Shown: positions 5,943 through 51,764 of the stretch, one piece after another
Position numbering within the stretch: position 1 is the first letter of the stretch
Layout: each line of letters opens with the position of its first letter
Source of the DNA: a virus
Virus record (IMG/VR): IMGVR_UViG_3300042453_003743
Coordinates: 1 to 64,000 of that record
Length of the DNA: 64,000 nt
Reading direction: 5' to 3' (one strand)
The notes under the pieces: model-generated
Databases searched by the model: none
What the model was told of the DNA's origin: nothing
The model's input: only the letters and a program-made list of their open reading frames with translations
Program-made: the position numbers and the translations under genes

Positions 5943-7853
5943 TCATAATGCAACTGCCATTGCTATGATAAAGGGTTTTAAATTTACTGCTCCAGTTGCT
6001 CCATCTACTGAAATTACGTATTCTGTGGGGATTGCTCCAGTGTCTCCCTGCGGCCCTTGGGGTCCCGTGGCTCCGGTGTTTCCTTGAGGGCCTTGAGAAC
6101 CAGTGTTTCCTTGTGGTCCCTGTGCTCCAGTAGATCCTGTACTTCCTTGTGGTCCGGTTGCACCAGTTATTCCTGCTGGTATTATAGAAGCAATTGTTGA
6201 AGTAAATGTGCTATAATCTACTCTTTTTGTAGTATTATCATCTCCGTCTGCTACAAGAATGCTAGTACTTGATTTATAATTTACCGTAGATGCTTGGTTG
6301 TTGAAATAGTTCAACATATCATCCATAGTAACCAAATACATTTCATTGGCTTTGGGGTTTGCAATCAAATTTCTATCTTGCAAAAGTACCACATCAATTT
6401 TATCAATATCAGCTGAAGTTCTTAAAGGAAATGTCGCACCGCCTCTTGAATAATCAATTCCAAATGAATGGGTGTTTCCACTTATTGTATAAGTTATTCC
6501 ACGTTGTGCTCTTAAATTTATTGCTCCCGTAGTTCCATTCAAAGAAACTACATAAGGGCCGCTAATTCCCGCCCCACCCCCTGCAGATATAGAAATGTTT
6601 ACATTTTTTCTATTTGAAGTGGCAGTGATATTATCACCAACAAAATTTATAGTACTCGGATTTCTATGAATTTTTTGACCATTCAAATAGATATCCACAC
6701 CACCCCCACCACCCGGAGTAACCATTTGGCCGATTTTATTGATAGCGTCTTGAATATTAGAATTTTTAAAATTATCCAATATTCCTGTTAATTTTTCAGT
6801 ATCAACTGAAATATTTCCATCTTCAAGTACCAATGGATAGGTCGCAGTAATGATAGGAGCCTCACCAGCAGGTCCTTGTGGTCCGGGTGGCCCGTGAGGT
6901 CCTTCTGGGCCCTGTGGCCCCTGAGAGCCAATGGGACCCATCTCACCGCGTTCTCCACGATCTCCTTTTGGTCCCTGCAAACCCACTGGACCAATTTTAC
7001 CATCCACGCCATCCTTTCCCGCCAATCCCTGTGGACCTCGTTCACCTTGTATTCCTTGGGGACCTACTTTACCTTCTGGGCCCTGTGGCCCCTGTGGACC
7101 TTGTTCTCCTTGAGGACCCTTTGGGCCAATTTTTCCAGATTTCCCGGGCAATCCTTCGGGTCCGGGTTCACCTCTTGGGCCTTGGGGACCAACTAATCCT
7201 TGTTCTCCTTGTTGACCTTGAGGACCTTCTGGACCTATTTCGCCACGATCACCTTTTGGACCAGCAGGCCCAATATCTCCCCGTTCACCCTTTTCACCGC
7301 GAAGACCTTGTGATCCAGCTTGTGGAATTATTTCTTTTACAATTGTTTTTTCAACTAGCTGAACAACAGGTTTTTCAACAACTTTTGGAGCTTGCGCGAC
7401 AGGTTTTAGTGCAACTTGTTCTTCAAGGAGATTTTTTATTTGAGTTGAGTTTCCAACAAATTTTATTACCTTATTGGTATTTTTTTCAATAAAATACCGT
7501 TCTGTAATACCGTTGCCAGCATAAATTTTTTCATCTGCTGTAAGCGCTGTTGTTTCTTTTAATGTTGAATTTTGTAATAGAGAACCAATTGGTCTTTTTA
7601 CTTTAAAAATCTGTCCATCTACATTTTCAAATAAAAGAACTGGTTGGAAATATTCTTTTATTTTGGATGAGTTTCCTTCCACCAGATAAGTTTCTCCAAA
7701 CTCATCTCTAAGATACATCTGAGAAATACCAGAACCTATTTTTACAGTTTTTGGATTATTTGCAAACTCTATAATATGATAAGTAGCACCCATCGACAGA
7801 TTTGGATGCTGTTTTATCAGTTTAAGAGAATTTTTATTCTTGCCAAAAAACAT
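5943..7853 (-). CDS. Collagen triple-helix repeat fibre protein, 636 aa
   Basis: Long Gly-X-Y tract (GPQ/GEK/GER) plus a second short tract near the C-terminus; duplicated N-terminal domain. Confidence 0.8.
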
Positions 7854-7855
7854 TT

Positions 7856-10800
7856 TTAGAATACTGGACCAACTCCAGGTCTGAAGTAAATAATCCCTGT
7901 GTTTGGGTCTCCGGGTGCTGCAATTGTGGTAACATCTATATTACCACCACTCTGTATACTGGGTCCTGTGTAACCGCTATTTCCGAATGAACTTATTGTT
8001 ATTGTTGGCTCGGGGAAAGTCCAGCCTGTTATAACTTCATCTGAAATTTTAATTGCGTACCCATTATGTACCCATCTGTCTCCACGATATTTAAACTGTC
8101 TGTAATATGAATTACCAACATTTTGTCCTAATGAAAGCCCCTGCACATATGTAGACAAACAATCTGGATCGTTATTTGGACATGGTTTTAATGGAAATCT
8201 ATCTACACCAGCCTCTGTTGGGCCGGGACTCCCTTGCGCCAGCATACCGGTCTCAAGCAAATATGTCACTTCGGAATTTTGGAGTATCGGAGGATCCTCT
8301 GTATTGTAAAGCAATTCTTCCGCGCCACCCCAATTCCATTTTTCTTGACATGTGATGCAGGGAATATCCCATGGGAAATTCATTGGGTTGATTTGTTCTG
8401 ATTGTGCAGGATTTTCAATAAATCCATATGAATTCCCGGGTGGATTAATATAATACAAAGCAGCGTTTGTGTTTCCTCCTGTAACACTAATTCCAAGAAC
8501 TGGAGCAGACGGAAATAGCACAGTTTCACCACTATGATATGTCATATGCACTATTTTTTGATTTTCTGCATAATATCTTGGTAAATATCCTGGTGTTTTT
8601 CTATTAGCGTTTAAAGTTGTATCATATGTCCACGGCCTCGGCCATACAGGAACAATACTAGTGTTAATCTCATTATTAGATGGAGACAATGGACCGTTTG
8701 TTTGATTTCCGGGTGGCAAAGTAGAAAATACACACGGGCATTGGTCTAACCATATTTTGTACTGCGTGATGGTATTAACAACTAGGAAAGTTCCTTTTCC
8801 GAGTGTCAAGTACTGTTCAGGATTTATTTTCAAAGAACCGAGCGGTCTACAATACGTCAGGCCACCTGTAAGACCAAAGGAGAATGTAAAATTTGTCCAG
8901 TTCATGGCATCACCCATGAATCTTAATGTTACTCCCTTTGTACTAACTCCGCTGCCACTCGACCAACCTGCAGTTCTTCCAAGACCATGATTGTAAAGAA
9001 TGGGACGATTCGGAATTATTCCACCTTTGAGACCTTGAATTCCCTGAATACCCTGAATACCCTGTAGACCTTGTGGGCCTTGTGGGCCTTGTGGGCCTTG
9101 AATACCCTGTAGACCTTGTGGGCCTTGTGGGCCTTGAATACCCTGTAGACCTTGTGGGCCTTGTGGGCCCTGAATACCCTGTAGACCTTGTGGGCCTTGA
9201 CGGCCTTGGATTCCTTGGGTTCCTTGGATTCCTTGTGATCCAACAGAACCTTGAATACCACCAATACCTCCGATTCCTTGAATACCTTGAACTCCTTGGA
9301 AACCTCTTCGACCATCATAACCAACAGGGCCAACCGATCCTATAAGTCCTTGAACTCCTTGACGGCCTTGAAGTCCTTGAACTCCCTGAATACCTTGAAT
9401 TCCTTGTGGTCCTTGTGGTCCTTGAATTCCTTGTATTCCAAGTGTTCCTTGTCTTCCTTGAATTCCTTGTGAACCAATAGTTCCTTGAGCACCATTAGAT
9501 CCCTGTGCACCAGCAGATCCTTGAATGCCTTGGCGACCTTGAATGCCTTGAATTCCTTGGACACCCTGACGCCCCTGAACACCCTGAATTCCCTGAGCAC
9601 CAGTTTGTCCAGATCCGCCGGAGCTTTGTTCCTCTACCCAAGTAGACCAAAATACTCCGGAACCTTCTGTATCATAACCACTTCCAGGATCAGTTCCTCT
9701 TTTTATAATACCATAACGAATGTACTTCGTATTCGGAGAAGCAGTAAAACCATTCGAAGTTATGTCTGTTACATCGTTTTCTAGGAAGAATCCAGTCTGT
9801 CTTATTACTCTATAAGGAAGTTCTTCACCAGCCACTGAAATGTCGGTTGATTTTGCGTATGTAAACCAATCATTTATTACGCAGCACGGGTCTGTCACTT
9901 CAACAGAAGAATTGGTGCTTCCCGGATAATTTATTATACGTCCAAATTGCGTCGAATCTTCTTGATACCAATAAGTTCCACCCAAGAATATTCCAAGATC
10001 CGTAGCATTTACTGTTCCATCATTATTCAAATCACCGGTTGGACCGGCAGTTCCCCAGTTTGCTAATATCAATGAACCCATCAAAGCAGCTGCGCCGTTG
10101 TTGGCAATTTGAGGTACTACAGTATAAACACCGGGGGTTGTTATATCATTAATATCATAAACAAATACGTTTGTATTGTTGTTTTCTCCATTGTTTGATG
10201 CCGCAAGTGGTGGATCCCATATTGCATTACCAAAAGATGATCCGCCTCCGGCATCCCCACCCAAAGATCTTTGTGAGAATGGGAATGGTTCTGTTATATC
10301 TGGATTACCAGCCCCACCAAAATGACAGCTAGAAGGATATTGTTGGGTTAAACATGTAGTAGTGGGAACATTATAACTACCAGTCGGTGAAGTAATACCA
10401 AAGTATTTTACACTGTTTAGATTTAAATTTCTTGTATATGTTGATCCCGGAACATAATTTACAAAATTACTAAGATTTGTAGTGCTGGAAGTAGTTTTAT
10501 CATAAACATTTACATTTGTAACAAACAGAGAGTAATATGTAATTCCACCGCGATATCGTGGAATTTGTATTTTATTGTTTATTTTTGTTACTTGACCAAT
10601 GTAATAAGTATCACCGAATCCCTGTTCACTCAATACAACTTTTGATAGATATGTTAGACCTGCAACGAAATTTGGGTTATTTGTATCTAATATTGCAGGC
10701 TCGGTCCAACCAGTAAATAATTCATAAACATCATTAGTTGGGTTTGTAATACCCGGAGTATTGATAAATCCATTTCTTTGATCTAAATTGTCTAGATAAA

Positions 10801-13800
10801 CATGATTTGAAACGTGGCCAGAGGGTGTGTCAGAATACCATTTCGTGACAACCATATCATCTGTTTTAAACAGTCTTGGATCAAATTTAGAAAGCCATGT
10901 TGCTGCAGCTTGCTTATATGCAGGAGAATCTGTTTCTAGATGTGAAATATAAGCAGTAGTTCCATAAATTGAATGTGCTCTTTTTCTGCCATCTTGATTT
11001 ATAAAATATTCAAATCCTGTAGCACCTGCGATTGCACCGTTGTTGCTGAATAGAACTTGTCTATTTGGTGCATTTGTAGTTGCTGAAGAGCTGCCAGCAG
11101 CACCTTGAACTCCCTGAACACCCTGCGTTCCAGATCCTATTGCTCCTTGGATTCCCTGACGCCCATCCGCCCCCTGAACCCCCTGCCTTCCTTGAACTCC
11201 TTGAACACCTTGAAGCCCCTGAATTCCTTGAATGCCCAGATTTCCCTGAATACCTTGAATTCCTTGTGGTCCTTGTGGTCCTTGAAGCCCTTGAATTCCT
11301 TGTGGGCCTTGAACCCCTTGAATTCCTTGGAAACCTTGGTTGCCTTGCAATCCTTGCAAGCCAATGAAACCTTGTATTCCTATAGAACCTTGTGTTCCTT
11401 GTCTACCTTGAAGACCTTGTATTCCTTGTGGACCGCGACGACCATCATATCCAACTGGACCAACTGCGCCATTATTTCCCTGAACTCCCTGTCTTCCATC
11501 ACCGCCTTGAATACCTTGTATTCCTTGTATACCCTGTGGTCCCTGGACTCCTTGAATTCCTTGTAAACCTTGAGGGCCTTGACGGCCTTGAATTCCTTGA
11601 ATTCCTTGGATTCCTTGGATTCCTTGTGATCCAACAGAACCTTGAATTCCATTAGTTCCTTGGGGGCCTTCACGACCTTGAATTCCTTGAATTCCTTGAG
11701 GGCCTTGGATGCCTTGACGACCATCTGCTCCTTGCAGTCCCTGTCTTCCTTGTATTCCCTGAGTTCCAACAGAACCTTGAATTCCTTGAACGCCTTGTGA
11801 GCCCGAGCCAGCTGCACCCTGTATTCCCTGTATACCAAAAGTTCCTTGGATTCCTTGGACTCCTTGGACTCCTTGGGATCCCGCTCCAATTGCACCTTGA
11901 AGTCCTTGAAAACCTTGTTGTCCTTGAAGTCCTTGAAGTCCTTGAATTCCTTGTGTACCTTGAAGCCCTTGAATTCCTTGTGTACCTTGAACCCCCTGTA
12001 TTCCTTGAATACCTTGCAGTCCTTGTGATCCCTGAACACCTTGTGCACCACTTCCTATGGCACCTTGTGTTCCTTGTCTACCTTGAAGACCTTGTATTCC
12101 TTGCGGGCCTCTGCGACCATCAAAACCTACTGGACCTACAGCACCATTGTTTCCTTGAATTCCTTGTCTGCCTTGAACTCCGTCCCCACCCTGAATGCCT
12201 TGTATTCCTTGTGGGCCCTGTGGGCCTTGAATACCCTGCAGACCTTGTGGGCCTTGACGGCCTTGAATACCCTGTAGACCTTGTGGGCCTTGTAGACCTT
12301 GAATACCCTGTAGACCTTGGGTTCCAGCACCAACAGAACCTTGAATACCAATTTGGCCTTGTGCTCCTTGTATTCCTTGGACACCCTGAGATCCAGCACC
12401 AGCACTTCCCTGAACGCCCTGTCTGCCTTGAAGACCTTGAACTCCCTGTGCACCATTAGAACCCTGTGCTCCAATAGCTCCCTGGGTTCCAACAGAACCC
12501 TGAATTCCTTGGACTCCTTGGAAGCCTTGAACTCCCTGCGACCCAGAACCAATCTGACCCTGTATACCTTGAAGACCTTGTGGGCCTTGTAAACCCTGTC
12601 TTCCTTGAATTCCTTGAGGACCTTGTATTCCTTGTGATCCTTCACGGCCCTGAATACCTTGTATCCCTTGGGTTGCGGCTCCAACAGATCCTTGAATGCC
12701 CTGTATTCCTTGTAAACCGCGACGACCATCAAATCCAACTGGGCCTACGGCACCATTGTTTCCTTGAATGCCTTGTATTCCCTGACGCCCTTGAATTCCT
12801 TGAATTCCTTGCGATCCTGCAGATCCTTGTATTGAAAGACCACCGGCTCCTTGTGTTCCAATGGAACCTTGTATTCCCTGCACTCCCTGAGAACCAGAAC
12901 CTATGGCTCCTTGGATGCCTTGTAGTCCAGCTTGCCCCTGAACACCAACAGAACCTTGAATTCCTTGGGAACCGACACCAGCGCCCCCTTGAATTCCTTG
13001 CAAACCTTGCGTACCTTGACGACCTTGGATTCCCAGTGCTCCCTGAGTTCCCTGTATACCGGATCCAATAGCACCCTGCGTTCCCTGTGCTCCCTGTGTG
13101 CCAACACCTACAGATCCTTGTACGCCAACAGACCCCTGTACGCCAATTTGTCCTTGTATTCCTTGGACTCCCTGTGTCCCAGAACCAATCGCTCCTTGTA
13201 TACCTTGGCGACCTTGTATACCTTGAATTCCTTGTTGTCCTTGAATTCCTTGCGACCCAGAACCAGCAGAACCCTGAATTCCCTGTGTTCCAGAACCAAC
13301 AGCACCCTGGACACCCTGTATTCCTTGCGGGCCTCTGCGACCATCAAAGCCTACTGGGCCTACAGCACCATTGTTTCCTTGAATTCCTTGCGATCCTTGG
13401 ATTCCCTGTGTGCCCTGACTTCCCGCTCCAGCAGAACCCTGAATTCCAATTTGCCCTTGGATGCCCTGACGACCCTGAACACCTTGTGAACCGATACCCA
13501 ATGATCCTTGAATGCCCTGTGCACCACCCGAACCTTGAAGTCCTTGTACGCCTTGTATTCCTTGAGAACCATTTTGGCCTGCAGAACCTTGCAACCCGGA
13601 AGAACCTTGAAGCCCTTGAACTCCCTGAGAACCAGAACCAGCTTGGCCTTGTATTCCTTGTCTTCCCTGTGCTCCTTGGATTCCTTGTAGTCCTTGTATT
13701 CCCTGCGAACCATTTTGTCCAGCGTTTCCCTGTATTCCTTGTGAACCTGCACCAGCAGAGCCCTGAATACCAATAGTTCCTTGGGCACCAACAGAACCCT

Positions 13801-15259
13801 GAACGCCTTGTGTTCCCGATCCTATTGCGCCTTGAATTCCTTGACGACCTTGTACCCCCTGTGCTCCAACTGCTCCCTGTGCGCCAAGTGTTCCTTGGGC
13901 ACCAAAAGATCCTTGCGCTCCAACAGAACCTTGAACTCCTTGCACCCCCTGCACACCAGATTGCCCCTGTATACCTTGGGCACCTCTTCGCCCATCAAAT
14001 CCTACAGGACCTACTGATCCCGGGATACCTTGAGCTCCAGTGCCGCCTTGAATTCCTTGCGGTCCTTGTCTTCCTTGAACTCCTTGTAGCCCCTGAGAAC
14101 CTTGAACTCCTGCACTACCAGCAACTCCTTGCAATCCTTGAGCCCCAACAAGTCCCTGAATGCCCTGCAGACCAGATGAACCCTGCAGCCCAGCAAAGCC
14201 TTGAATTCCCTGAGAACCAAAGCCAGCGGATCCTTGCAATCCTTGAAGACCTTGAGCGCCACCTGCGCCTTGTATTCCTTGACGACCTTGAATTCCCTGT
14301 ACACCTTGAACACCTTGAACACCTTGGGATCCATTAGATCCGGCAGAACCTTGTATGCCTGCAGATCCTTGAATGCCCTGAGAACCAACGCCAGACGATC
14401 CTTGTAAACCTTGAACACCTTGGGTTCCCTGTGTACCTTGTCTTCCTTGAATTCCCTGAGCACCATTTATACCTTGTAAACCAACAGAACCCTGTAGTCC
14501 CTGTGCTCCTTGTGAGCCATTAGTTCCTTGAATTCCTTGAATACCTTGCGGGCCTCGACGCCCATCAAATCCAACGGGTCCAACTGCTCCGGGGATTCCT
14601 TGCAATCCTAATGATCCCTGTGTTCCCTGACTTCCTTGTATTCCTTGGGACCCAACAGACCCCTGAAGTCCAGAAGATCCTTGAATTCCAGCAAACCCCT
14701 GAATACCCTGAGCACCAGTATTTCCAAGAGAACCATTTGAACCTGCACTACCTTGAAGACCGATAGACCCCTGAATACCTTGCGATCCAAAGCCTGCAAC
14801 ACCTTGAACGCCTTGAACACCCTGTGTGCCCACAGTACCCTGACTGCCCAAAACTCCTTGCACACCCTGTGTTCCTTGTGTACCACGGCGACCGTCGAAT
14901 CCTGCGGGACCAACAGATCCTATAAAACCTTGGTTGCCTTGGACACCTTGAACACCAAGAAAACCTTGTATTCCTTGAATTCCCTGAATACCTTGAACAG
15001 TCTGTACGTTTAAATATGCTACATTCCACACCCAATTTCCAGGTGTGCCGGTGAGATAATAGTATGTTGTATTTGCTACAACATATACAATCATACCCAC
15101 CTCTCTGCGCTCGTCTGGAATGCTGTCTCTATCAGCGAGAGTGGCAACAGTTCTTAGACCACCTAATCCATATATTGGTTTAGTAACAGGATAAGTATCA
15201 GTCGAATCAAACGGACTGATGAAACCTCCAATTGGTACTCCACCTGGTATTTCAGCCAT
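7856..15259 (-). CDS. Giant collagen-like fibre protein with Gly-X-Gln repeats, 2467 aa
   Basis: About 1300-aa and about 200-aa G-X-Q tracts separated and followed by globular Cys/Pro-containing domains; N-terminal 'GGLRTVAT...[17 protein letters not shown]' domain. Confidence 0.85.
9045..9200. repeat. Near-perfect 36-bp tandem repeat (aataccctgtagaccttgtgggccttgtgggccttg), about 4 copies, inside the collagen gene
   Basis: Read directly; built from 9-bp subunits encoding GPQ/GLQ/GIQ. Confidence 0.8.
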
Positions 15260-16717: not shown

Positions 16718-17944
16718 TTATAATTTTACAGTCTGAGCCTTCTCTAGATCTACATTTAGAGTAGTTTTATTCTCTAAATTTTTAATTTTTTGTTCCTGTT
16801 CGGCTTTCATTTTTTCTTGATTTTGATTAAATTCTGCAATAGCCTTTAAGTAGACTTCTTTATTTTTTTCAATTCTTGGTCGGTGTTCTTCTGGCATGTA
16901 AGGCTCCGATAGAAGTTTTTCACATGCTGCTAGACCCATATGAATTTTTCCAACATAAAATGCTGTTGTAGAAATTTCATCCAAAATTCCCCATTGATAT
17001 ACTGCTTTGTCAACAAACAAAATATCATCTTTTGGAATGGGAATCGTCAATGCCTGAGCAGCAGCCATAAACGCGTTTCTTGGTCTTTCGTATTTTCTAT
17101 AGATGCAAGAAAGGTGATACAGCGCTTCGGCGCGATTTGGCCTTGCTTCATAAGATCTTAAGAAAGCATCGGTAACTTGTTCTTGTGGCTTGCCCATGAT
17201 CTCACGGCATATTCCAACACGAATCCAAGAATAGAACACTTCTTCTGGCCAACTTCCCATTTCAATTCTTCTAAGATATTCTTTTTCAGCTACTTCAAAA
17301 AGCTGCGCATCAAATGCAGATTGTGCTGCATAGAATTGCTTTCTCACTGAAGAAGGATCTTTTTCAAGATATTTTTTTAGTAAGAAGTAATCTCTCGCGT
17401 ATTTTTCTCTGTCACTATTAACTTCTCTTGAACGACAACCCTCAGTACGAACGTTCCACGAATAATTTCCTTCAAGTCTCTCAACCTTCATTGGCTGTTC
17501 GCAAATTGCGTATTCGTGCAAAGGCTCTTCGTACCACCAAAGTTTTTTGGCAAGATTGAAGACTTGGGCGCGATACCATACCATATTTCCACGGGAAATT
17601 TTTACAACATAACCATCTAGATCATCATTGAAAGAATCTACAGGAAGTGTTCCTTCGATAGTGTCGTCAGCATCAATCATCAGAGCCCATTTTGTTTTAC
17701 CATGACAGTGCTTTAAAACTTGTGACCGATTTGTTCCAAAGTCTTCCCATTTATGATCTAAAATTTCACCGGGAATGTTTTTCTTTTCAAAAAAATCTTT
17801 GATTAATTGTTTTGTGTTATCTACAGATCCGGTGTCTGCGATTACATAATAATCAATATATGGTGCGACTGACTCCAAGCATCTTTCGATATTTGGAGCC
17901 TCATTTTTTACGATCATTGCTAATGTTAATTTGTGCATTTTCAT
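16718..17944 (-). CDS. GT2-family glycosyltransferase with TPR repeats, 408 aa
   Basis: 'LAMIVKNEA.NIERCLES', 'DTGS.DNT', 'DF..NR', 'MIDADD' (DxD), 'LHE', then TPR-like helices. Confidence 0.88.
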   Translation of the reverse strand: MKMHKLTLAMIVKNEAPNIERCLESVAPYIDYYVIADTGSVDNTKQLIKDFFEKKNIPGEILDHKWEDFGTNRSQVLKHCHGKTKWALMIDADDTIEGTLPVDSFNDDLDGYVVKISRGNMVWYRAQVFNLAKKLWWYEEPLHEYAICEQPMKVERLEGNYSWNVRTEGCRSREVNSDREKYARDYFLLKKYLEKDPSSVRKQFYAAQSAFDAQLFEVAEKEYLRRIEMGSWPEEVFYSWIRVGICREIMGKPQEQVTDAFLRSYEARPNRAEALYHLSCIYRKYERPRNAFMAAAQALTIPIPKDDILFVDKAVYQWGILDEISTTAFYVGKIHMGLAACEKLLSEPYMPEEHRPRIEKNKEVYLKAIAEFNQNQEKMKAEQEQKIKNLENKTTLNVDLEKAQTVKL

Positions 17945-45491: not shown

Positions 45492-45924
45492 CTTGGATCA
45501 CCTCAGCATCAACAACATCTTTATTGGTGCTTCTTTCTTTGTTCAACAAGTTTTGAAGATCTTTTGTCGAACCAACAAAAACTGAATTGTTTGTTTGTTT
45601 TATTTCTACTTTTGAACTAGTAGTATCTTTTGCTTTTTTATGTACATCTAAAACATTATTATTTAAATCTGCCATCGTTTTGAGTAATATGGCAACCACC
45701 TCAAATGCCCTTGGGCTATCGGATTCGGTTGCAACTTTTAGTGCACTTTCAAGAGCAACACTACCCGTTCCAATTAAATTTTTTAAATTTTCTTGAACCA
45801 ATTTATAATCTTTATCAAAATTTCCAGAATCAAATGTGCCACCCTGTATGGGTTTTTCTGAGGCTGGTAGTTTTGTTTCTGGTATAGAAAAAAATTGTGC
45901 TAAATTTTTATTAATATGCATCAC
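45475..45924 (-). CDS. gp16: Terminase small subunit gp16
   Basis: 'DY....NL..LI..G', 'A.ESDSPRAFEV', 'NN.VFVGST.DLQ'. Confidence 0.93.
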   Translation of the reverse strand: MMHINKNLAQFFSIPETKLPASEKPIQGGTFDSGNFDKDYKLVQENLKNLIGTGSVALESALKVATESDSPRAFEVVAILLKTMADLNNNVLDVHKKAKDTTSSKVEIKQTNNSVFVGSTKDLQNLLNKERSTNKDVVDAEVIQDEKRE

Positions 45925-46606
45925 TTATTCCAAAAGAATTACCATCTCCGCCAAGCCCTTCTATATTTGCTGCCATGCTTCCCAAAGTTGTTGTCGGAAC
46001 TGTTTTTCCAAAAATATATGCTTTTGCAACAAAACTAAAAGAGGAGATATTTATTCTTCTTGTAGAAAAATCACCATCAAATCTTTCACTTAAATTATTT
46101 GGACCCATGACAATAGGAACAATAACATCTTTATTTACATCGCTATAATCTAGTTTTATAATATGATCAGGTACAAAGTATGGCATTATTTGTTCTACAA
46201 TTTGCATTGTATCGTCAGTGTGCCGAGTATATATGTATAAATTAAAATTTAAGTTTACGGGTATTTCGTTTGCTATTGAATAACCGCTTGGCTGGCAATT
46301 TCCAGCTGGACCTGTAGTTGGACTATACTGCGTAAGTCTTCCTTTTTTTCTTGAGGGGTCTGGAACGATTCCACTCATTATATAACTCATTCTGGGCAGC
46401 TGATTCTCTATTCTTGTTCCTTCGCTTATAGAAGACGGGTTTAAATATCTTTGTATAAATTTTTCTTGAGATGCATAAGCAAGTGGAACCTTTATTTCTT
46501 TAAAAGATCCATCACTTTCTGAGTGTCTTACACTAATATTATTAAATAGAGTTCCAAAAGCAACTACTATTTTTTTTAAATTTTGGTTATATATGTAACT
46601 AAACAT
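45911..46606 (-). CDS. gp15: Tail sheath stabiliser/completion protein gp15
   Basis: 'VVAFGTLFNNI', 'VPLAYA..EKF', 'LPRMS', 'QIVEQI.PYF.P'. Confidence 0.95.
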   Translation of the reverse strand: MFSYIYNQNLKKIVVAFGTLFNNISVRHSESDGSFKEIKVPLAYASQEKFIQRYLNPSSISEGTRIENQLPRMSYIMSGIVPDPSRKKGRLTQYSPTTGPAGNCQPSGYSIANEIPVNLNFNLYIYTRHTDDTMQIVEQIMPYFVPDHIIKLDYSDVNKDVIVPIVMGPNNLSERFDGDFSTRRINISSFSFVAKAYIFGKTVPTTTLGSMAANIEGLGGDGNSFGISDAY

Positions 46607-46618
46607 TTATTTTTCCGT

Positions 46619-49600
46619 TTAATCGAAAGGATTATTGATATCAAAGTTTATTTCTTCTGCTTTTTGATCTAGCACATCATTTATACCAGCAGTAGTTCCT
46701 AAAATATTATTTTTAGGGATAATATAATTTTTAATACCATAATATTGTATATCAGAATCATTTGTGCTGGATATAATATACGCCGAAGCTCCTGTATAAC
46801 TAAAACTTCCAGTTATTCCTGTAATTTTGATAACATTATTGTTTACTTGCTCTATAATACCTTCAGCCAATGTGATTTGATTATCGACTATAAGTGATCT
46901 TTGTGTTATTCCTTGAGCGTAAAAAGGAGTATTATTTGGTAGCTGTGAAGTAATACCTGGGAAAGGATTTAAAGTTACACCATCAAAATAAATTGTTGGT
47001 ATTCTTATTGGTGGTTCGTTCGGTATTTTTTGTGGGGTTAAAGACGGCAGAGCTTCACTTATTGGTGTTGATCTTACATCTATATCAATTTTTACAATAA
47101 GCTCTTCTTTTGGAACACCCTTGGATTCCATAAAATTATTTAAAAATGCCACTGCCTCATCTGGCATTTCTATGAACGAATGATATCCGTTAGAGAATAT
47201 ATGATTGGTGAATGTAGTCCACGGTGGAGCAAGCATAATTGTTGGCTGGTGTGTTACACCAGATATCACATTATAGTAAGCGGTATGCCCCAAACCCTGA
47301 ATAAAAAATGGACTTCCGCTATCTCCGACAAAAGCCTCATATCCGCATTGATGTGGTTCTATGTCGCTTCTTGCTGGCATTACTGTCTCTAACAGGTAGT
47401 ATGTTATTCCAGAAGTAATGCCCGTTATAGGTTCAGCATTACCGGCAAAGAAATATTCATCATTTGTTTCTTTAACTTTTAATGATCTGGTAGATACAAG
47501 CCTTTCCTGTCCGTCTATTCCCCACACTCTTCTTCCTATATGTTTTTGATAATTTACAGTACCATAATTTTCTGAAACTAATGGATAAAAATTTTTGTAA
47601 ACAGCTACGGGAAAATCAATTGTTTTTCTTCCAGTAAAATTTTTAAATTTTGCCCATTTATTATAAATTGCTATTTTTGATAATTCGTCATTTTTTAAGG
47701 GCTGATCTAATTCATATAGGTACAAATCATACGGGTGATAAGGCAAACCAAAAATATCTGGAGGAAGTGGAATCAACCCAGCTTCGCTGTTTACTTGTGT
47801 CAAATCTCTGCTTATAATAGAATTATCATGCAGCATCCATTTTACATTATTAACTTGTAAGTTAGGTCCTGCATAATGAGCACAGGCCAGAGCAAATTTT
47901 CTATTAATTAATATAAAACACCAATACCCAGAGTTGTGTGTATTGACATCTACTCTGTAGGGATCTATTATATTCGCCCCATACGAAAGTGGGAATGCGT
48001 CATAAAAAGGCAAGTAATCCGCACCCAATCGCCGTGGCCGCATAGAACAACCACTAAAATCAATTTTATTATAACTGTCGTGAACTAAAAGATTATTTAG
48101 GGGATCTCTGTATTCTAACCAAGTGGTATCATTTTTTGCAATTGGCCATATTTCTGTATAATATGGCCTGGGTTCTAATGCAGAAGATTTATATTTAAAT
48201 CTATCATGTAGTTTTTCTGTATATCCACTTTCAAAAGTAAGTCTTGCAGGGGAAGGAACTGATTTTGGTTGTGATTCGTATTTATCAAATGTGTTTAAAT
48301 GTTTTTTTGCTATTGCTACCGCTTCCCGGGTTTTGGGGATGCTAAAGCCTGGACCGGCAACATCATCCCATCCAAGATTATTAAAATTGTACAAAGCTAT
48401 TGTAGAATTTTTACCACAAATAATTTTTTTTACATTTTCTCCGTATGTTACTGGATATGCATACCAGTGTGAATGCCAAGTTCCTTGCTCTCTGGTTAAT
48501 GAATACTGATTATCTGAAATAGTTCTCCATAAGGTTCCGCCTTTTTCTGGTGGAGATACAGGAGTATCTAATTGATTATATGTGTTTCCACCCCAACAAA
48601 TTACATTCTTGTTTTTAGTCAACAATACAGTGTGGTCCATACCACCAGATATTTGAAACCCCCCCGTACCAACTGTCTCGGGCACAGTGCACTGACCAGA
48701 TGCAGTCAAGCCCCAGCAGACAACAGTTCCATCCGTTTTTACTGCCATGCTATGGTAATACCCGCTACCTATACTAGCTACACCACTAAGTCCAGCCGGA
48801 ACAGAACATTGTGAATGTGTGTTTCCACCCCAACAAACAACGGTTCCATTTTCCTTGAGAGCAACAGTGTGGTCTAAACCACATGCCAGTTGTATAACTT
48901 TACTTTCCAAAGCCATTCCGTTTTCTTCAGCACTGTCTAAATCCAATCCCGCTGGAATGTTAATTCTTCCATTTGCAGTGGAACCCCACGCAATTATTCT
49001 TCCATTTTCAAATAAGGCGATTGAGTGACTTGCTCCAGCAACAATTTGTTTTAAATTTCCAGTGTAAAGTGCACCAACTGGTACATTGCATTGTCCCGAT
49101 TCATTGGCACCCCAAGCGTACAGTGTATACCCGTAACCCATTAAAAAATGGTTTTTTCCTGCGGCTATTAAATTATATTTTTCTTCGCTTGTTATTAATG
49201 GCAAACCACCAGTTCCGCCACTTGTTTCTAAACATATATTTGGATCCATTGCCCACGTATATTGTCTGAACACACCCTGTGATATTGGTGTATACAATTG
49301 CTCGACTGAAAAACTGGATCCAAAACTATTATAAAGCGTGTAATATTTTGAAACAAATTCGGGGATAGGTGCCCCGCCAGTCATTCCTTCTTTGTTTACA
49401 AATACAATCGCCGCACATCTACCAGTTTTTATACAGGAACTTTGGTTCAATTCAGTAGTACACAATGGTTCGTTATACTGATCGACAAAGCCAGTAACAT
49501 AAGCCCATTCAAAAATTTGAGGCGAACCGCCTCCTCCCGTCGAATCAAAAGAATCTATATTTCTTATACCTATCCCAAAACCACTATTTTCGCCCATTAC

Positions 49601-49849
49601 AAAAGATTTTATGTCAAGTTGTTCATAGCGTGGAAAAATTGCTGGCTCTAAAGAGGTATTTGTAAAATTGACACCCAACACGTTTACAGAACCTTGGGGA
49701 TTATTAATTTCTTCTAGCACATAGTGATTTCCAAAAGAAAAATCTTTTGTTGCATTATTTTTTCCAAAATCACCCCAAGCCATGAATGTTGTAAATTCAT
49801 TACCCGGGTATCCACCAGTTATACCATAATTTCTATAAAATACTGCCAT
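46619..49849 (-). CDS. RCC1-repeat plus trypsin-like serine protease protein with gp14-like C-terminus, 1076 aa
   Basis: Several RCC1 repeats ('I..G..H..AL...G.V.CWG.N..QC.VP'); His 'ALACAHY', Asp 'YDLYLYEL', Ser 'GDSGSP'; ends 'INFDINNPFD'. Confidence 0.75.
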   Translation of the reverse strand: MAVFYRNYGITGGYPGNEFTTFMAWGDFGKNNATKDFSFGNHYVLEEINNPQGSVNVLGVNFTNTSLEPAIFPRYEQLDIKSFVMGENSGFGIGIRNIDSFDSTGGGGSPQIFEWAYVTGFVDQYNEPLCTTELNQSSCIKTGRCAAIVFVNKEGMTGGAPIPEFVSKYYTLYNSFGSSFSVEQLYTPISQGVFRQYTWAMDPNICLETSGGTGGLPLITSEEKYNLIAAGKNHFLMGYGYTLYAWGANESGQCNVPVGALYTGNLKQIVAGASHSIALFENGRIIAWGSTANGRINIPAGLDLDSAEENGMALESKVIQLACGLDHTVALKENGTVVCWGGNTHSQCSVPAGLSGVASIGSGYYHSMAVKTDGTVVCWGLTASGQCTVPETVGTGGFQISGGMDHTVLLTKNKNVICWGGNTYNQLDTPVSPPEKGGTLWRTISDNQYSLTREQGTWHSHWYAYPVTYGENVKKIICGKNSTIALYNFNNLGWDDVAGPGFSIPKTREAVAIAKKHLNTFDKYESQPKSVPSPARLTFESGYTEKLHDRFKYKSSALEPRPYYTEIWPIAKNDTTWLEYRDPLNNLLVHDSYNKIDFSGCSMRPRRLGADYLPFYDAFPLSYGANIIDPYRVDVNTHNSGYWCFILINRKFALACAHYAGPNLQVNNVKWMLHDNSIISRDLTQVNSEAGLIPLPPDIFGLPYHPYDLYLYELDQPLKNDELSKIAIYNKWAKFKNFTGRKTIDFPVAVYKNFYPLVSENYGTVNYQKHIGRRVWGIDGQERLVSTRSLKVKETNDEYFFAGNAEPITGITSGITYYLLETVMPARSDIEPHQCGYEAFVGDSGSPFFIQGLGHTAYYNVISGVTHQPTIMLAPPWTTFTNHIFSNGYHSFIEMPDEAVAFLNNFMESKGVPKEELIVKIDIDVRSTPISEALPSLTPQKIPNEPPIRIPTIYFDGVTLNPFPGITSQLPNNTPFYAQGITQRSLIVDNQITLAEGIIEQVNNNVIKITGITGSFSYTGASAYIISSTNDSDIQYYGIKNYIIPKNNILGTTAGINDVLDQKAEEINFDINNPFD

Positions 49850-49852
49850 TCG

Positions 49853-50500
49853 TTAATCTCCGAAAGTAAAGGTTGAGTAAGGGAATACACCATCAGGGAG
49901 AGTTTGCATGGTTATACTATAACCAACCTCAAATTGACCACTACCATTACTTAGCACAAATTGCGAATCGTCTTGTGACTGCTTATAAACGATATCAATA
50001 TTATTATTTTTAGTATTGATTTTTTCGTAGCTGTATGTAAATAGTTCTGCAGTTATGACGTATGAATACAATTTTCCAAGGGGATATAGTGGATTTTCAT
50101 GTTCGACAAAATTTATTTCAAATAAAGATTTGGAAAGAGGAAAGTATATCAAATCCCCTTCTCTTGGCCTAGTTAATGTAACGTCATAATTTGATATTTG
50201 CTGCTTAAATCTTCGTCGTGCTAAAAGTAAATTTATTTTGTCTTTAATTTCAACACCAAATTGTGTTATTATATCCGTTCCCTCAAAACCTTTATAAGAT
50301 AAAATATACATTTCAACTGTATAAGTTTTTTCAAAAGAAGAAGCGGGATCTTCTCCAAAAATTTTATCAATGTTGAAATATTTTCTAGGAATATAAAGGC
50401 AATCCTGACCAGTTGCTTTTATCAATTCAACAGTGATATCCTCTACCAAATCTTGTTCGGAGTGTCTTTTTGTTAGATTTAGGTATGGATTTGTCGCCAT
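49853..50500 (-). CDS. gp14: Neck protein gp14 (conserved N-terminal part), 215 aa
   Basis: 'NPY', 'EQ.LVED...E.I...G.D..YIPR', 'FGED', 'RPREGDLIYFPL...LFEI.FVEHE.P.Y.LGK', 'ELF.YS.E'. Confidence 0.93.
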   Translation of the reverse strand: MATNPYLNLTKRHSEQDLVEDITVELIKATGQDCLYIPRKYFNIDKIFGEDPASSFEKTYTVEMYILSYKGFEGTDIITQFGVEIKDKINLLLARRRFKQQISNYDVTLTRPREGDLIYFPLSKSLFEINFVEHENPLYPLGKLYSYVITAELFTYSYEKINTKNNNIDIVYKQSQDDSQFVLSNGSGQFEVGYSITMQTLPDGVFPYSTFTFGD

Positions 50501-50503
50501 TTA

Positions 50504-51331
50504 TTATCCTATTAAGGGATCAACCGGTAGCTCTTGTGTTTTCAAGAGTGTTGCTTCTATTTCAGCAAGTTCTCTTACTGCATCCGACATCATTGCACCG
50601 GCATTTAACTGGGCTCCACCCGGCAAAGGAATTCCAGAAAACTTCATCAAATTTTGAGCCCACTGTTTTTTAAGAATAGCAGAAAAATATAATTTAAAGA
50701 CACGATCATTCCATATGTTTGGGTATTTTTCTGGATCTATTTTAACATATGTTTCTAAAAGAATATATTTTGTGCTAGAAAGTTTTGTATAGTCTGTTTC
50801 TAAGAAAAGCCTATTTGTTGTTTTGGTGTAAGTATAAGACATTGGATAATTAAAAATATTATCAACGTTGTTTATATAAGACATGGCTTCTATGTAAGAA
50901 GCCAGCGGTGCCATTGGATAACCAGTTTGATTAAAGTATATTCCAAAAAAATCAAATAAAGTCATCTGATATCTTAAATCAAACATGTAGTCCCCAATAG
51001 GATGGCTGGGTGCATATACTTTGCTAACAGTTCTTATGTCTTGCGCTCTTGGCCAATAGCCAGTAGATCCGTCTGCAAACGTTCTTAACTGAGCACCAAT
51101 TGCATCACCAAACGTAGAGACATCGAAAAATTTTTGAGCAATTTCTTGATTTGATACTTGGTGTGCAAACAAGGCTCTTTGATTAAAATCAAAATGCCTG
51201 TCGTACATATATTCTAGGGCTTCGTCCAAACGATCTTCAATTTGTTGGCTATCTACGTTTACCTGTATAACGGGATGCCCCAAATGTCTTAAGGTATAGT
51301 CAATAAATTCTTGTCGGTTTGCAATGGCCAT
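50504..51331 (-). CDS. gp13: Neck protein gp13
   Basis: 'R.E...Y.LR.LG.PV...NV...Q..DR..EAL', 'HFD', 'K.QW..NL.KF.G..LPGG..LN'. Confidence 0.95.
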   Translation of the reverse strand: MAIANRQEFIDYTLRHLGHPVIQVNVDSQQIEDRLDEALEYMYDRHFDFNQRALFAHQVSNQEIAQKFFDVSTFGDAIGAQLRTFADGSTGYWPRAQDIRTVSKVYAPSHPIGDYMFDLRYQMTLFDFFGIYFNQTGYPMAPLASYIEAMSYINNVDNIFNYPMSYTYTKTTNRLFLETDYTKLSSTKYILLETYVKIDPEKYPNIWNDRVFKLYFSAILKKQWAQNLMKFSGIPLPGGAQLNAGAMMSDAVRELAEIEATLLKTQELPVDPLIG

Positions 51332-51368: not shown

Positions 51369-51764
51369 TTAAGTTTGGTTAGCTGCACCGTTGATTGTGA
51401 CTTCTACAAAATTTAACTCTTCTTCTGGCATTTTTTCTATCAGCGTTTTTCTTTCAGAAACTACATTTGGATCGTAGTTTGTAAATCCAGGCATTTGAAG
51501 AGGACAATTTAATTTGGGATAATCCAATTTAGAATAATTTTGATTATTTTTTAGTAACCATGTATGAGGGAAATCACCGCACCCACACTTACCACAATAA
51601 TGCATTTCACCATATTGGCTTTTTTTTAAAAATTCACAGGCCGAAATTTCTTTGTGCCCAAAACAAGAAACGGCCCTTAATTTTTTTGTTAATAAATCTG
51701 CTTTTGTATTATTTAATCCCCTAGAAGCTACAGACATAGCCAAAGACACAATTTTATCTAACAT
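51369..51764 (-). CDS. Cys-rich hypothetical protein, 131 aa
   Basis: 'SCFG....C..L.....HYCGKCGCGD...WL......SKLDYP.LNCPL.MPGF.NY' suggests metal binding. Confidence 0.7.
   Translation of the reverse strand: MLDKIVSLAMSVASRGLNNTKADLLTKKLRAVSCFGHKEISACEFLKKSQYGEMHYCGKCGCGDFPHTWLLKNNQNYSKLDYPKLNCPLQMPGFTNYDPNVVSERKTLIEKMPEEELNFVEVTINGAANQT

Follow-up and report, generated by a model that had tools for sequence, protein, structure and literature searches.

How is the neck of a T4-like phage put together when the gene for its neck protein gp14 is interrupted, and what does the interrupting sequence bring with it? The question is posed by 64,000 nucleotides of DNA from an uncultured freshwater T4-like phage (IMG/VR record IMGVR_UViG_3300042453_003743, positions 1 to 64,000; hereafter the window). 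In this window a shortened gp14 gene, gp14N, is followed on the minus strand by a 1076-aa open reading frame (ORF) with an RCC1-like propeller, a predicted serine protease domain and the remainder of gp14. We find that a module has been inserted within gp14, that gp14 is a genuinely split gene made of two separate translation units, and that the module is an optional cassette recombining among related freshwater T4-like phages. The explanation that we favour, and hold as a whole with moderate confidence, combines a split gp14N with a cargo protein docked at the neck, where the phage probably wears an exchangeable enzyme.

A module inserted within gp14

Relatives of the window carry the argument for an insertion. 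A scan of viral contigs with the 215-aa gp14N kept 80 loci of 541 confirmed relatives, and gp14 is complete in 78 of the 80: it is 287 aa long in nine (L004-L012), 218-228 aa in 64 and 204-209 aa in five. The 287-aa proteins are 85-89% identical to the window's, are uninterrupted and end in PKNNILGTTAGINDNL..EE..ELNFDINNPFD. The five alleles of 204-209 aa are cut off and lack this ending, and each is followed by a homologous ORF of ~1030-1060 aa that itself ends in the gp14 arm. Most proteins of 218-228 aa (among L014-L083) end a few residues past NPF, in Cys-containing tails such as CDNT or CGSTSGTEGCN.

gp14N is 85% identical to residues 1-209 of insert-free L004 gp14, and aa 994-1076 of the large ORF are 61% identical to residues 205-287 of the same protein (E 8e-30); the ~3.1-kb module therefore sits inside gp14. 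At the DNA level, blastn homology between the window and L004 runs over 54000-49967 and then 46843-43002, and the 3123 nt of window-specific DNA between them (46844-49966, minus strand) replace 105 nt of L004. The insert-free proteins (L004-L012 and P0203; 287 aa) share the core, a small beta domain and the arm with the window's gp14, but have neither cargo nor split. A preliminary description of this locus had proposed an insertion into gp14 and had read the position and sequence of the large ORF's C-terminus correctly; alignment of that end with the gp14 C-termini of relatives bears the proposal out. Only close relatives reveal this homology; Pfam and PHROGs searches with the terminal 150 and 250 aa of the large ORF returned nothing at E<=10. 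There is no second copy of gp14 in the window's own record.

Pfam found no Hint, endonuclease or transposase domain in the large ORF region, and no direct repeats flank the insert borders. The GC content of the insert (0.34-0.42, against 0.30-0.36 in its flanks) gives no clear foreign signal. TATAAATA occurs 10 times against 7.2 expected, never near the junction. In the records of four insert-free relatives (fragments of 17.7-43 kb) no RCC1-protease is encoded elsewhere. A search for relatives with the single 1076-aa protein gave none, and an alignment of homologues was required; a metagenome scan with that alignment, by RCC1 patterns, returned mostly unrelated RCC1 proteins, with L139, L141 and L207 as the only new members. 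Among cultured phages, tblastn with the large ORF matched only its RCC1 part, in 13 records. Full-length homologues of the large protein are P0006-P0009, P0011 and P0013, and those encoded in L013, L048, L075, L076, L086, L087, L091, L095 and L139.

Pairs of closely related loci show that the cargo is exchanged. L075 and L076 are 97.5% identical in gp13, 97.5% in gp14N and 96.5% in gp15, against 49% in the large ORF; L048 and L051 are 92% and 97% identical in the backbone, against 47.5%. DNA homology in these pairs breaks off ~140 nt inside the large ORF and sets in again ~250 nt ahead of its end, and thus the beta1 strand at the end of gp14N and the C-terminal gp14 piece stay with the backbone. 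By cargo region, identity is 64-90% in the RCC1 core, 10-38% in the stretch after the propeller and 24-78% in the protease.

A tree of the gp14 core places six distinct split alleles in one clade (support 97/91). The window lies apart from it and groups with insert-free L004 and L006 (support 100/96), its first 172 aa being 95% identical to the insert-free core. Two changes on the tree are therefore required to account for the split state. The window's beta1 sequence, SNGSGQFEVG, is closer to the version of the split clade than to AGGTGSFTVG of L004, and this likeness fits acquisition of the cassette with its flanks by recombination; the alternative is loss in the sister lineage. Fourteen lake or freshwater runs share the window DNA (at least half of sampled words). 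Given this spread and the divergence of the cargo (47-49%), the module may matter for host interaction in lakes.

A split neck protein and its proposed cargo at the neck-tail joint

The minus-strand gene order is gp13, gp14N, the 1076-aa ORF, gp15, the small terminase subunit (TerS) and the large terminase subunit (TerL). gp13 (50504-51331; 275 aa) is a neck adaptor matching phrog_211, head-tail adaptor Ad2 (E 2.6e-30), and is 90.5% identical to gp13 of insert-free L004. gp14N (49853-50500; 215 aa and a TAA) matches Pfam T4_neck-protein (PF11649; E 2e-40, 139 bits against a cut-off of 25, profile positions 30-196 of 278) and phrog_679 (E 1.6e-61). The large ORF (46619-49849) encodes first the cargo and then the C-terminal part of gp14, and is followed by the gene for the tail terminator gp15 (45911-46606; 231 aa; Pfam T4-gp15_tss, E 9.9e-51).

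We took solved T4 gp14 as the reference (PDB 9lu4-9lu7, 9mkb, 9mof and 9x3o). Excerpts of PMC12929587 and PMC12929629 place its core at residues 5-177 and describe its last 80 residues as disordered in the isolated neck; in the virion, according to an excerpt of PMC12929629, residues 212-245 form an acidic helix and a hook that embrace the gp15 hexamer. L004 gp14 residues 3-163 match residues 27-183 of solved T4 gp14 (E 1.7e-32), and the core that forms the ring is thus present in full on gp14N. The window and T4 thus share a homologous core, and they also share the gene order gp13-gp14-gp15-gp16-gp17 and an acidic C-terminal arm that ends in F-x-x-x-(N/S)-P-F. T4 gp14, however, is a single chain of 256 aa, whereas the window's chain is broken after the core and its arm lies on a second polypeptide with ~990 cargo residues ahead of it. 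By core homology and by its position between gp13 and gp15, gp14N is a gp14, but one without the arm on the same chain.

Beyond the ring-forming core, gp14N has the opening strand of a small accessory beta domain and ends in a tail of 16 aa. Between core and arm, the 287-aa relatives and the 378-aa gp14 proteins of marine phages have a short beta-rich stretch with the pattern G-x-F-x-V-G-x-x-V ... G-E-G-x-V ... N-x-I-x-L-x-G-I-x-G-x-F. The window's gp14 is broken behind the first such element. This beta1 region (49904-49951, minus strand; aa 184-199, SNGSGQFEVGYSITMQ) is retained in every split allele: residues S184, G186, S187, G188, Q189, F190, V192, G193 and T197 are invariant in six gp14N sequences, and the pattern G-x-G-x-F-x-x-G-x-x-V recurs in L087, L091, L095 and L141. 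Since the element is kept at the end of every gp14N, we argue that the strand pairs in trans with the rest of the beta domain.

The rest of that domain and the acidic arm form the C-terminal piece of the large protein (46622-46870, minus strand; aa 994-1076), which closes with ...GINDVLDQKAEEINFDINNPFD, its final residues being NFDINNPFD. Six acidic residues and one basic residue stand in the last 30 aa, and the end motif aligns with SFESSPFD at the end of T4 gp14. Eleven full-length alleles are only 33-39% identical to the window's large protein, and N1047, N1048, L1050, G1051, T1052, T1053, A1054, G1055, F1069, N1072, P1074 and F1075 are invariant in all 11. Both halves of gp14 are under constraint. 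The expected docking partner of the arm is gp15, in which basic residues at T4 positions R11, R38 and R74 are kept and those at K46 and K160 are not, in an alignment of only 30% identity.

The first product, gp14N, carries the core that forms the hexameric neck ring on gp13, together with the first beta strand. The second is translated from its own GGAG-N8-ATG right after the gp14N stop; its 1076 residues comprise an N-terminal region, a BLIP-II-like RCC1 propeller, a protease with an intact His-Asp-Ser triad and the remaining gp14. On this basis we propose a site for the cargo. The acidic arm of T4 gp14 wraps the gp15 ring, and therefore the large protein should dock at the neck-tail joint, one per gp14 subunit and in six copies. 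It would be held there by its arm on gp15 and probably also by completion of the beta domain with the gp14N strand. That the cargo is so divergent, and that the protease has relatives of an extracellular type, suggests an enzyme which would act outside the cell, on a proteinaceous target.

Several points weigh against this proposal. We infer the presence of the large protein in the virion, and its binding to gp14N and gp15, by analogy with T4. A role in entry is hard to reconcile with the position of the neck, which in contractile-tailed phages lies far from the host surface. The placing of the split inside the beta domain draws on sequence patterns, the AlphaFold model of L004 gp14 being unreliable there (mean pLDDT 54.5, and 27-53 over residues 156-287); the strands at 195-200, 203-213 and 217-221 and the helix at 272-278 in that model stand at pLDDT 27-53 and are not counted as support. 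A PDB sequence search with P-RSM6 gp14 matched T4 gp14 only, with no solved beta domain. No Pfam (E<=10), NCBIfam or PHROG model recognises the protease domain, and the model that we built of it on a 20-sequence alignment with remote relatives (pTM 0.73) has a mean pLDDT of 64.6, with 49 in the block that contains Asp708. Finally, nine of the 13 junctions visible after further scans, or four of six junction types, are in frame, which may be a trace of an ancestral in-frame insertion or fusion and leaves room for rare readthrough in the window allele.

The large protein might instead act inside the infected cell or during assembly and not be a lasting virion appendage, an alternative that we regard as unlikely. 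Self-cleavage, for example, could free the C-terminal gp14 piece, which alone would join the neck, or the enzyme could process other late proteins such as the collagen-repeat fibres. The gene lies within the late structural block, its product has no signal peptide as judged from the N-terminus, and giant collagen-repeat proteins are encoded nearby. A protease beside a structural piece also resembles the self-cleaving chaperones of phage fibres. However, the model shows QIDIDV, the segment that follows the protease, as a confidently placed strand of the domain and not as a free linker, and the dockerin found in relatives of the protease points to use outside the cell. Divergence of the cargo on near-identical backbones fits a surface-exposed, host-facing part better than a housekeeping enzyme, and close relatives assemble without the module.

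A cargo docked at the neck would have partial precedents. The phi29 appendages, which bear an enzyme domain, are accessory proteins at the head-tail joint. The fibritin whiskers of T4 are mounted on gp13, as an excerpt of PMC12929629 describes. Both are products of separate genes with their own adaptor domains, whereas the attachment piece in the window is a severed part of a neck protein and the cargo a protease. Excerpts of PMC7029224 and PMC12379486 report a hypervariable 'host recognition cluster' adjoining gp14 in pelagi- and cyanomyophages. In our full-text literature search, neither a split gp14 nor a protease mounted on the neck was found described.

The RCC1 propeller and the protease domain

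The cargo begins with an N-terminal region (49169-49849, minus strand; aa 1-227) whose first ~30 aa (MAVFY...AWGDFG) are conserved across alleles. This region has no Pfam, NCBIfam or significant PDB sequence match (best PDB E 0.07), and its ESM features point to RCC1 clusters (0.89), which we take as a lead. The RCC1-like beta-propeller follows (48389-49168, minus strand; aa 228-487). It matches Pfam RCC1_2 in four stretches (E 4e-36; 122 bits against a cut-off of 22), which agrees with the RCC1 repeats that the preliminary description placed at ~48540-49180, and has five WG blade motifs, at aa 246, 288, 340, 379 and 419, with one further WG N-terminal to them. The WD40_RLD profile scores 123.8 bits over positions 36-314 of 363, below its cut-off of 150. 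Among solved proteins the nearest is beta-lactamase inhibitor protein II (BLIP-II; E 1.3e-38), followed by UVR8 (E 2.9e-31); the propeller shares the short-bladed RCC1 repeats of this group but forms part of a structural protein of a phage. RCC1 and Trypsin domains are also combined in cellular proteins (P0021 and P0031). NCBIfam and PADLOC gave nothing for the large ORF or its parts.

The third part of the cargo (47045-48232, minus strand; aa 540-935) is, according to its predicted structure, a very divergent chymotrypsin-fold serine protease domain. The catalytic residues that had been noted beforehand are all in place: His658 (47876-47878, in 'ALACAHY'), Asp708 (47726-47728) and Ser844 (47318-47320, in 'GDSGSP'). 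Foldseek with the model gave 245 PDB matches at E<=0.001, the best 50 of which are all chymotrypsin-fold proteases or their homologues, at E about 1e-5. On re-alignment with VIA, 948 of 1000 chains reached Z>=8; the top chain was the S6 autotransporter protease SepA (Z 12.4, rmsd 4.2 over 214 residues), with thrombins at ~Z 11.5 tied with it (within Z 1). A PDB sequence search with a wider profile found S1 proteases in 36 of 40 matches (best E 0.004), and the HMMER alignment to 3rp2_A sets the triad on the motifs LTAAHC, DIMLLKL and GDSGGP, that is, on His57, Asp102 and Ser195 of rat mast cell protease II. The wider profile was required, as a five-sequence profile matched only a Fab among PDB sequences, by chance. 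These results bear out the trypsin-like fold and intact triad first read from the window.

The domain resembles S1 and S6 peptidases such as SepA and IgA1 protease in fold (VIA Z 11-12.4), in the GDSGSP motif and in the order His-Asp-Ser, but differs from them in its length (396 aa with long insertions, against about 230) and in an extra conserved N-terminal motif of its family, Y-x-x-x-x-H-D. It does not score above the cut-off of the curated S1 (PF00089) or S6 (PF02395) model. A profile search of 1.84 billion representatives found only 31 relatives of the protease at E<=0.001. Pfam was run on 29 of these: two are RCC1-bearing members of the family, five have dockerin, one has a weak fn3 match and 19 have no family. 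One remote homologue, P0061, passes the Peptidase_S6 cut-off (24.4 against 23.3 bits), and one further remote homologue has a weak S6 match below it. The dockerin-bearing proteins, P0070, P0072, P0076, P0077 and P0081, are standalone remote homologues of 319-355 aa that end in a type I dockerin, which suggests a small uncatalogued family of secreted proteases.

The protease is predicted to be active from its conserved site. That it is instead a pseudo-enzyme, and the module a binding appendage only, analogous to an adhesin or whisker, would be in keeping with a domain too divergent for any curated family model and with the role of BLIP-II, the propeller's nearest solved relative, as a pure binding protein. 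We consider this improbable. All 11 full-length homologues have His658, Asp708 and Gly-Asp-Ser844-Gly unchanged, divergent as these alleles otherwise are from the window's protein. The remote standalone homologues retain the site as well: 20 of 20 have the His, the triad Asp and the GDSG Asp, and at least 18 of 20 have the Ser. A dead site would not be expected to be kept in this way.

The junction and other gp14 cargo

The preliminary description had allowed for partial readthrough of the stop between the two ORFs as well as for a split gp14 with its C-terminal part as the anchor of the cargo. The junction, read on the minus strand, is ...TTC GGA GAT TAA CGA ATG GCA GTA..., with TAA at 49855-49853, CGA at 49852-49850 and ATG at 49849-47, and GGAG lies 8 nt ahead of the ATG (49847-49861). 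As had been described, the two ORFs are in the same frame, and reading through with X at the stop gives 1293 residues.

Relatives of the window arrange this junction in several ways. One in-frame stop separates the ORFs in the window, L087 and L088, and two in-frame stops do so in L013, L048, L075, L086, L139 and L095; the ORFs are out of frame by +1 in L051 and L076 and by +2 in L091 and L141. All 13 junctions have a stop and an ATG of the large ORF's own, with a purine-rich stretch before the ATG. No fused gp14-RCC1-protease chain occurs among 50 matches of 591-1883 aa, and no fused gp14-RCC1 chain among the best 120 of 4563 long gp14 relatives; split and insert-free alleles were thus found as the preliminary description had envisaged, while a fused one was not. 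It follows that the split state is the one conserved, and that there is no need to invoke readthrough. A gp14 whose severed end anchors the cargo fits all 13 junctions and also the grip of T4 gp14 residues 212-245 on gp15, as described in an excerpt of PMC12929629.

Programmed or leaky readthrough of the single TAA, yielding a 1293-aa fusion as a functional, minor neck subunit, is in our view very improbable. It would suit the window, where one stop and one codon separate the ORFs, and the nine in-frame junctions; an in-frame position alone, however, has a chance of 1/3 and is not conserved among relatives. Against readthrough stand the four out-of-frame junctions, the six with two in-frame stops and the start signals of every large ORF. 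RNA folding at the stop is unremarkable (z -1.42; 14 of 200 shuffled sequences fold equally well), and neither a conserved in-frame single stop nor a stimulatory context, as programmed readthrough would have, was found. TAA is the least leaky stop codon in bacteria, and it is also the commonest in the window, where the 50 minus-strand ORFs use TAA 32 times, TGA 18 times and TAG never.

That the stop is an assembly or sequencing error in a simple 1293-aa fusion gene, a possibility raised beforehand for which only the in-frame arrangement speaks, can be dismissed, as contigs from four runs of four different studies (covering 49300-50093 or more) show 49847-49861 unchanged and without indel, and the 1076-aa protein starting at this ATG is on record with six member sequences. 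At 49910 the window has G and the contigs of all four runs have A, the window base being a minority variant there.

Other gp14 proteins also carry additional domains. In P0119, P0091 and P0153, each a gp14 of one chain (457-602 aa), an insert separates the core from a C-terminal DFSESNPFG motif; this insert is a Laminin_G_3 (concanavalin-like lectin) domain in P0119 (E 7.9e-9) and consists of repeats in P0091 and P0153. P0083-P0090, gp14 relatives of 771-851 aa whose core is 64-68% identical, have a same-chain extension of ~600 aa after the arm motif. No Pfam family matches this extension, and its ESM features lean to glycoside-hydrolase clusters (0.84-0.92), again a lead.

Tentatively, the gp14 linker after the core could be read as a plug-in socket at the neck-tail joint for swappable cargo, used in the window through a severed chain and strand completion. 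Its cargo would include the protease of the window, the lectin-like domain of P0119 and possibly a glycosidase-like module of the P0083 type. A search for longer proteins with the last 117 aa of the large ORF found only the large protein itself and the 287-aa gp14, which speaks weakly against other cargo types with a severed arm. If the socket reading is true, the neck would be a second hypervariable organ facing host or environment, besides the baseplate fibres, and would carry a receptor-destroying or surface-layer-cutting protease of an uncatalogued family. If neck-mounted enzymes are general, predicting host range from tail fibres alone misses a component.

The split gp14 with its neck-docked cargo would mean that gp14 can receive its C-terminal arm, which T4 virion structures have only recently revealed, in trans from another polypeptide. 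The window locus is then a direct test case for the construction of the head-tail joint, and it points to a natural split-protein docking device for mounting large enzymes. It also adds a putative chymotrypsin-fold protease lineage missed by all curated models.

The source record is a 137-kb virus contig, 76% complete by estimate. Against cultured phages its large terminase reaches at most 49.6% identity, and the phages concerned are cyanomyophages. No tRNA genes were found within the window. Two proteins with collagen triple-helix repeats, presumably fibres, are encoded on the minus strand at 7856-15259 (2467 aa; 18 Pfam stretches, E 2.9e-186) and 5943-7853 (636 aa), and a family 2 glycosyltransferase gene (16718-17944, minus strand; E 1.2e-12) adjoins them. 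Directly upstream of gp13, after a 211-aa ORF, lies a Cys-rich ORF of 131 aa (51369-51764, minus strand; …CGKCGCGDFPHTW…), which has no family match and whose position is kept in relatives (4743-5138 in L004 and 534-980 in L075).

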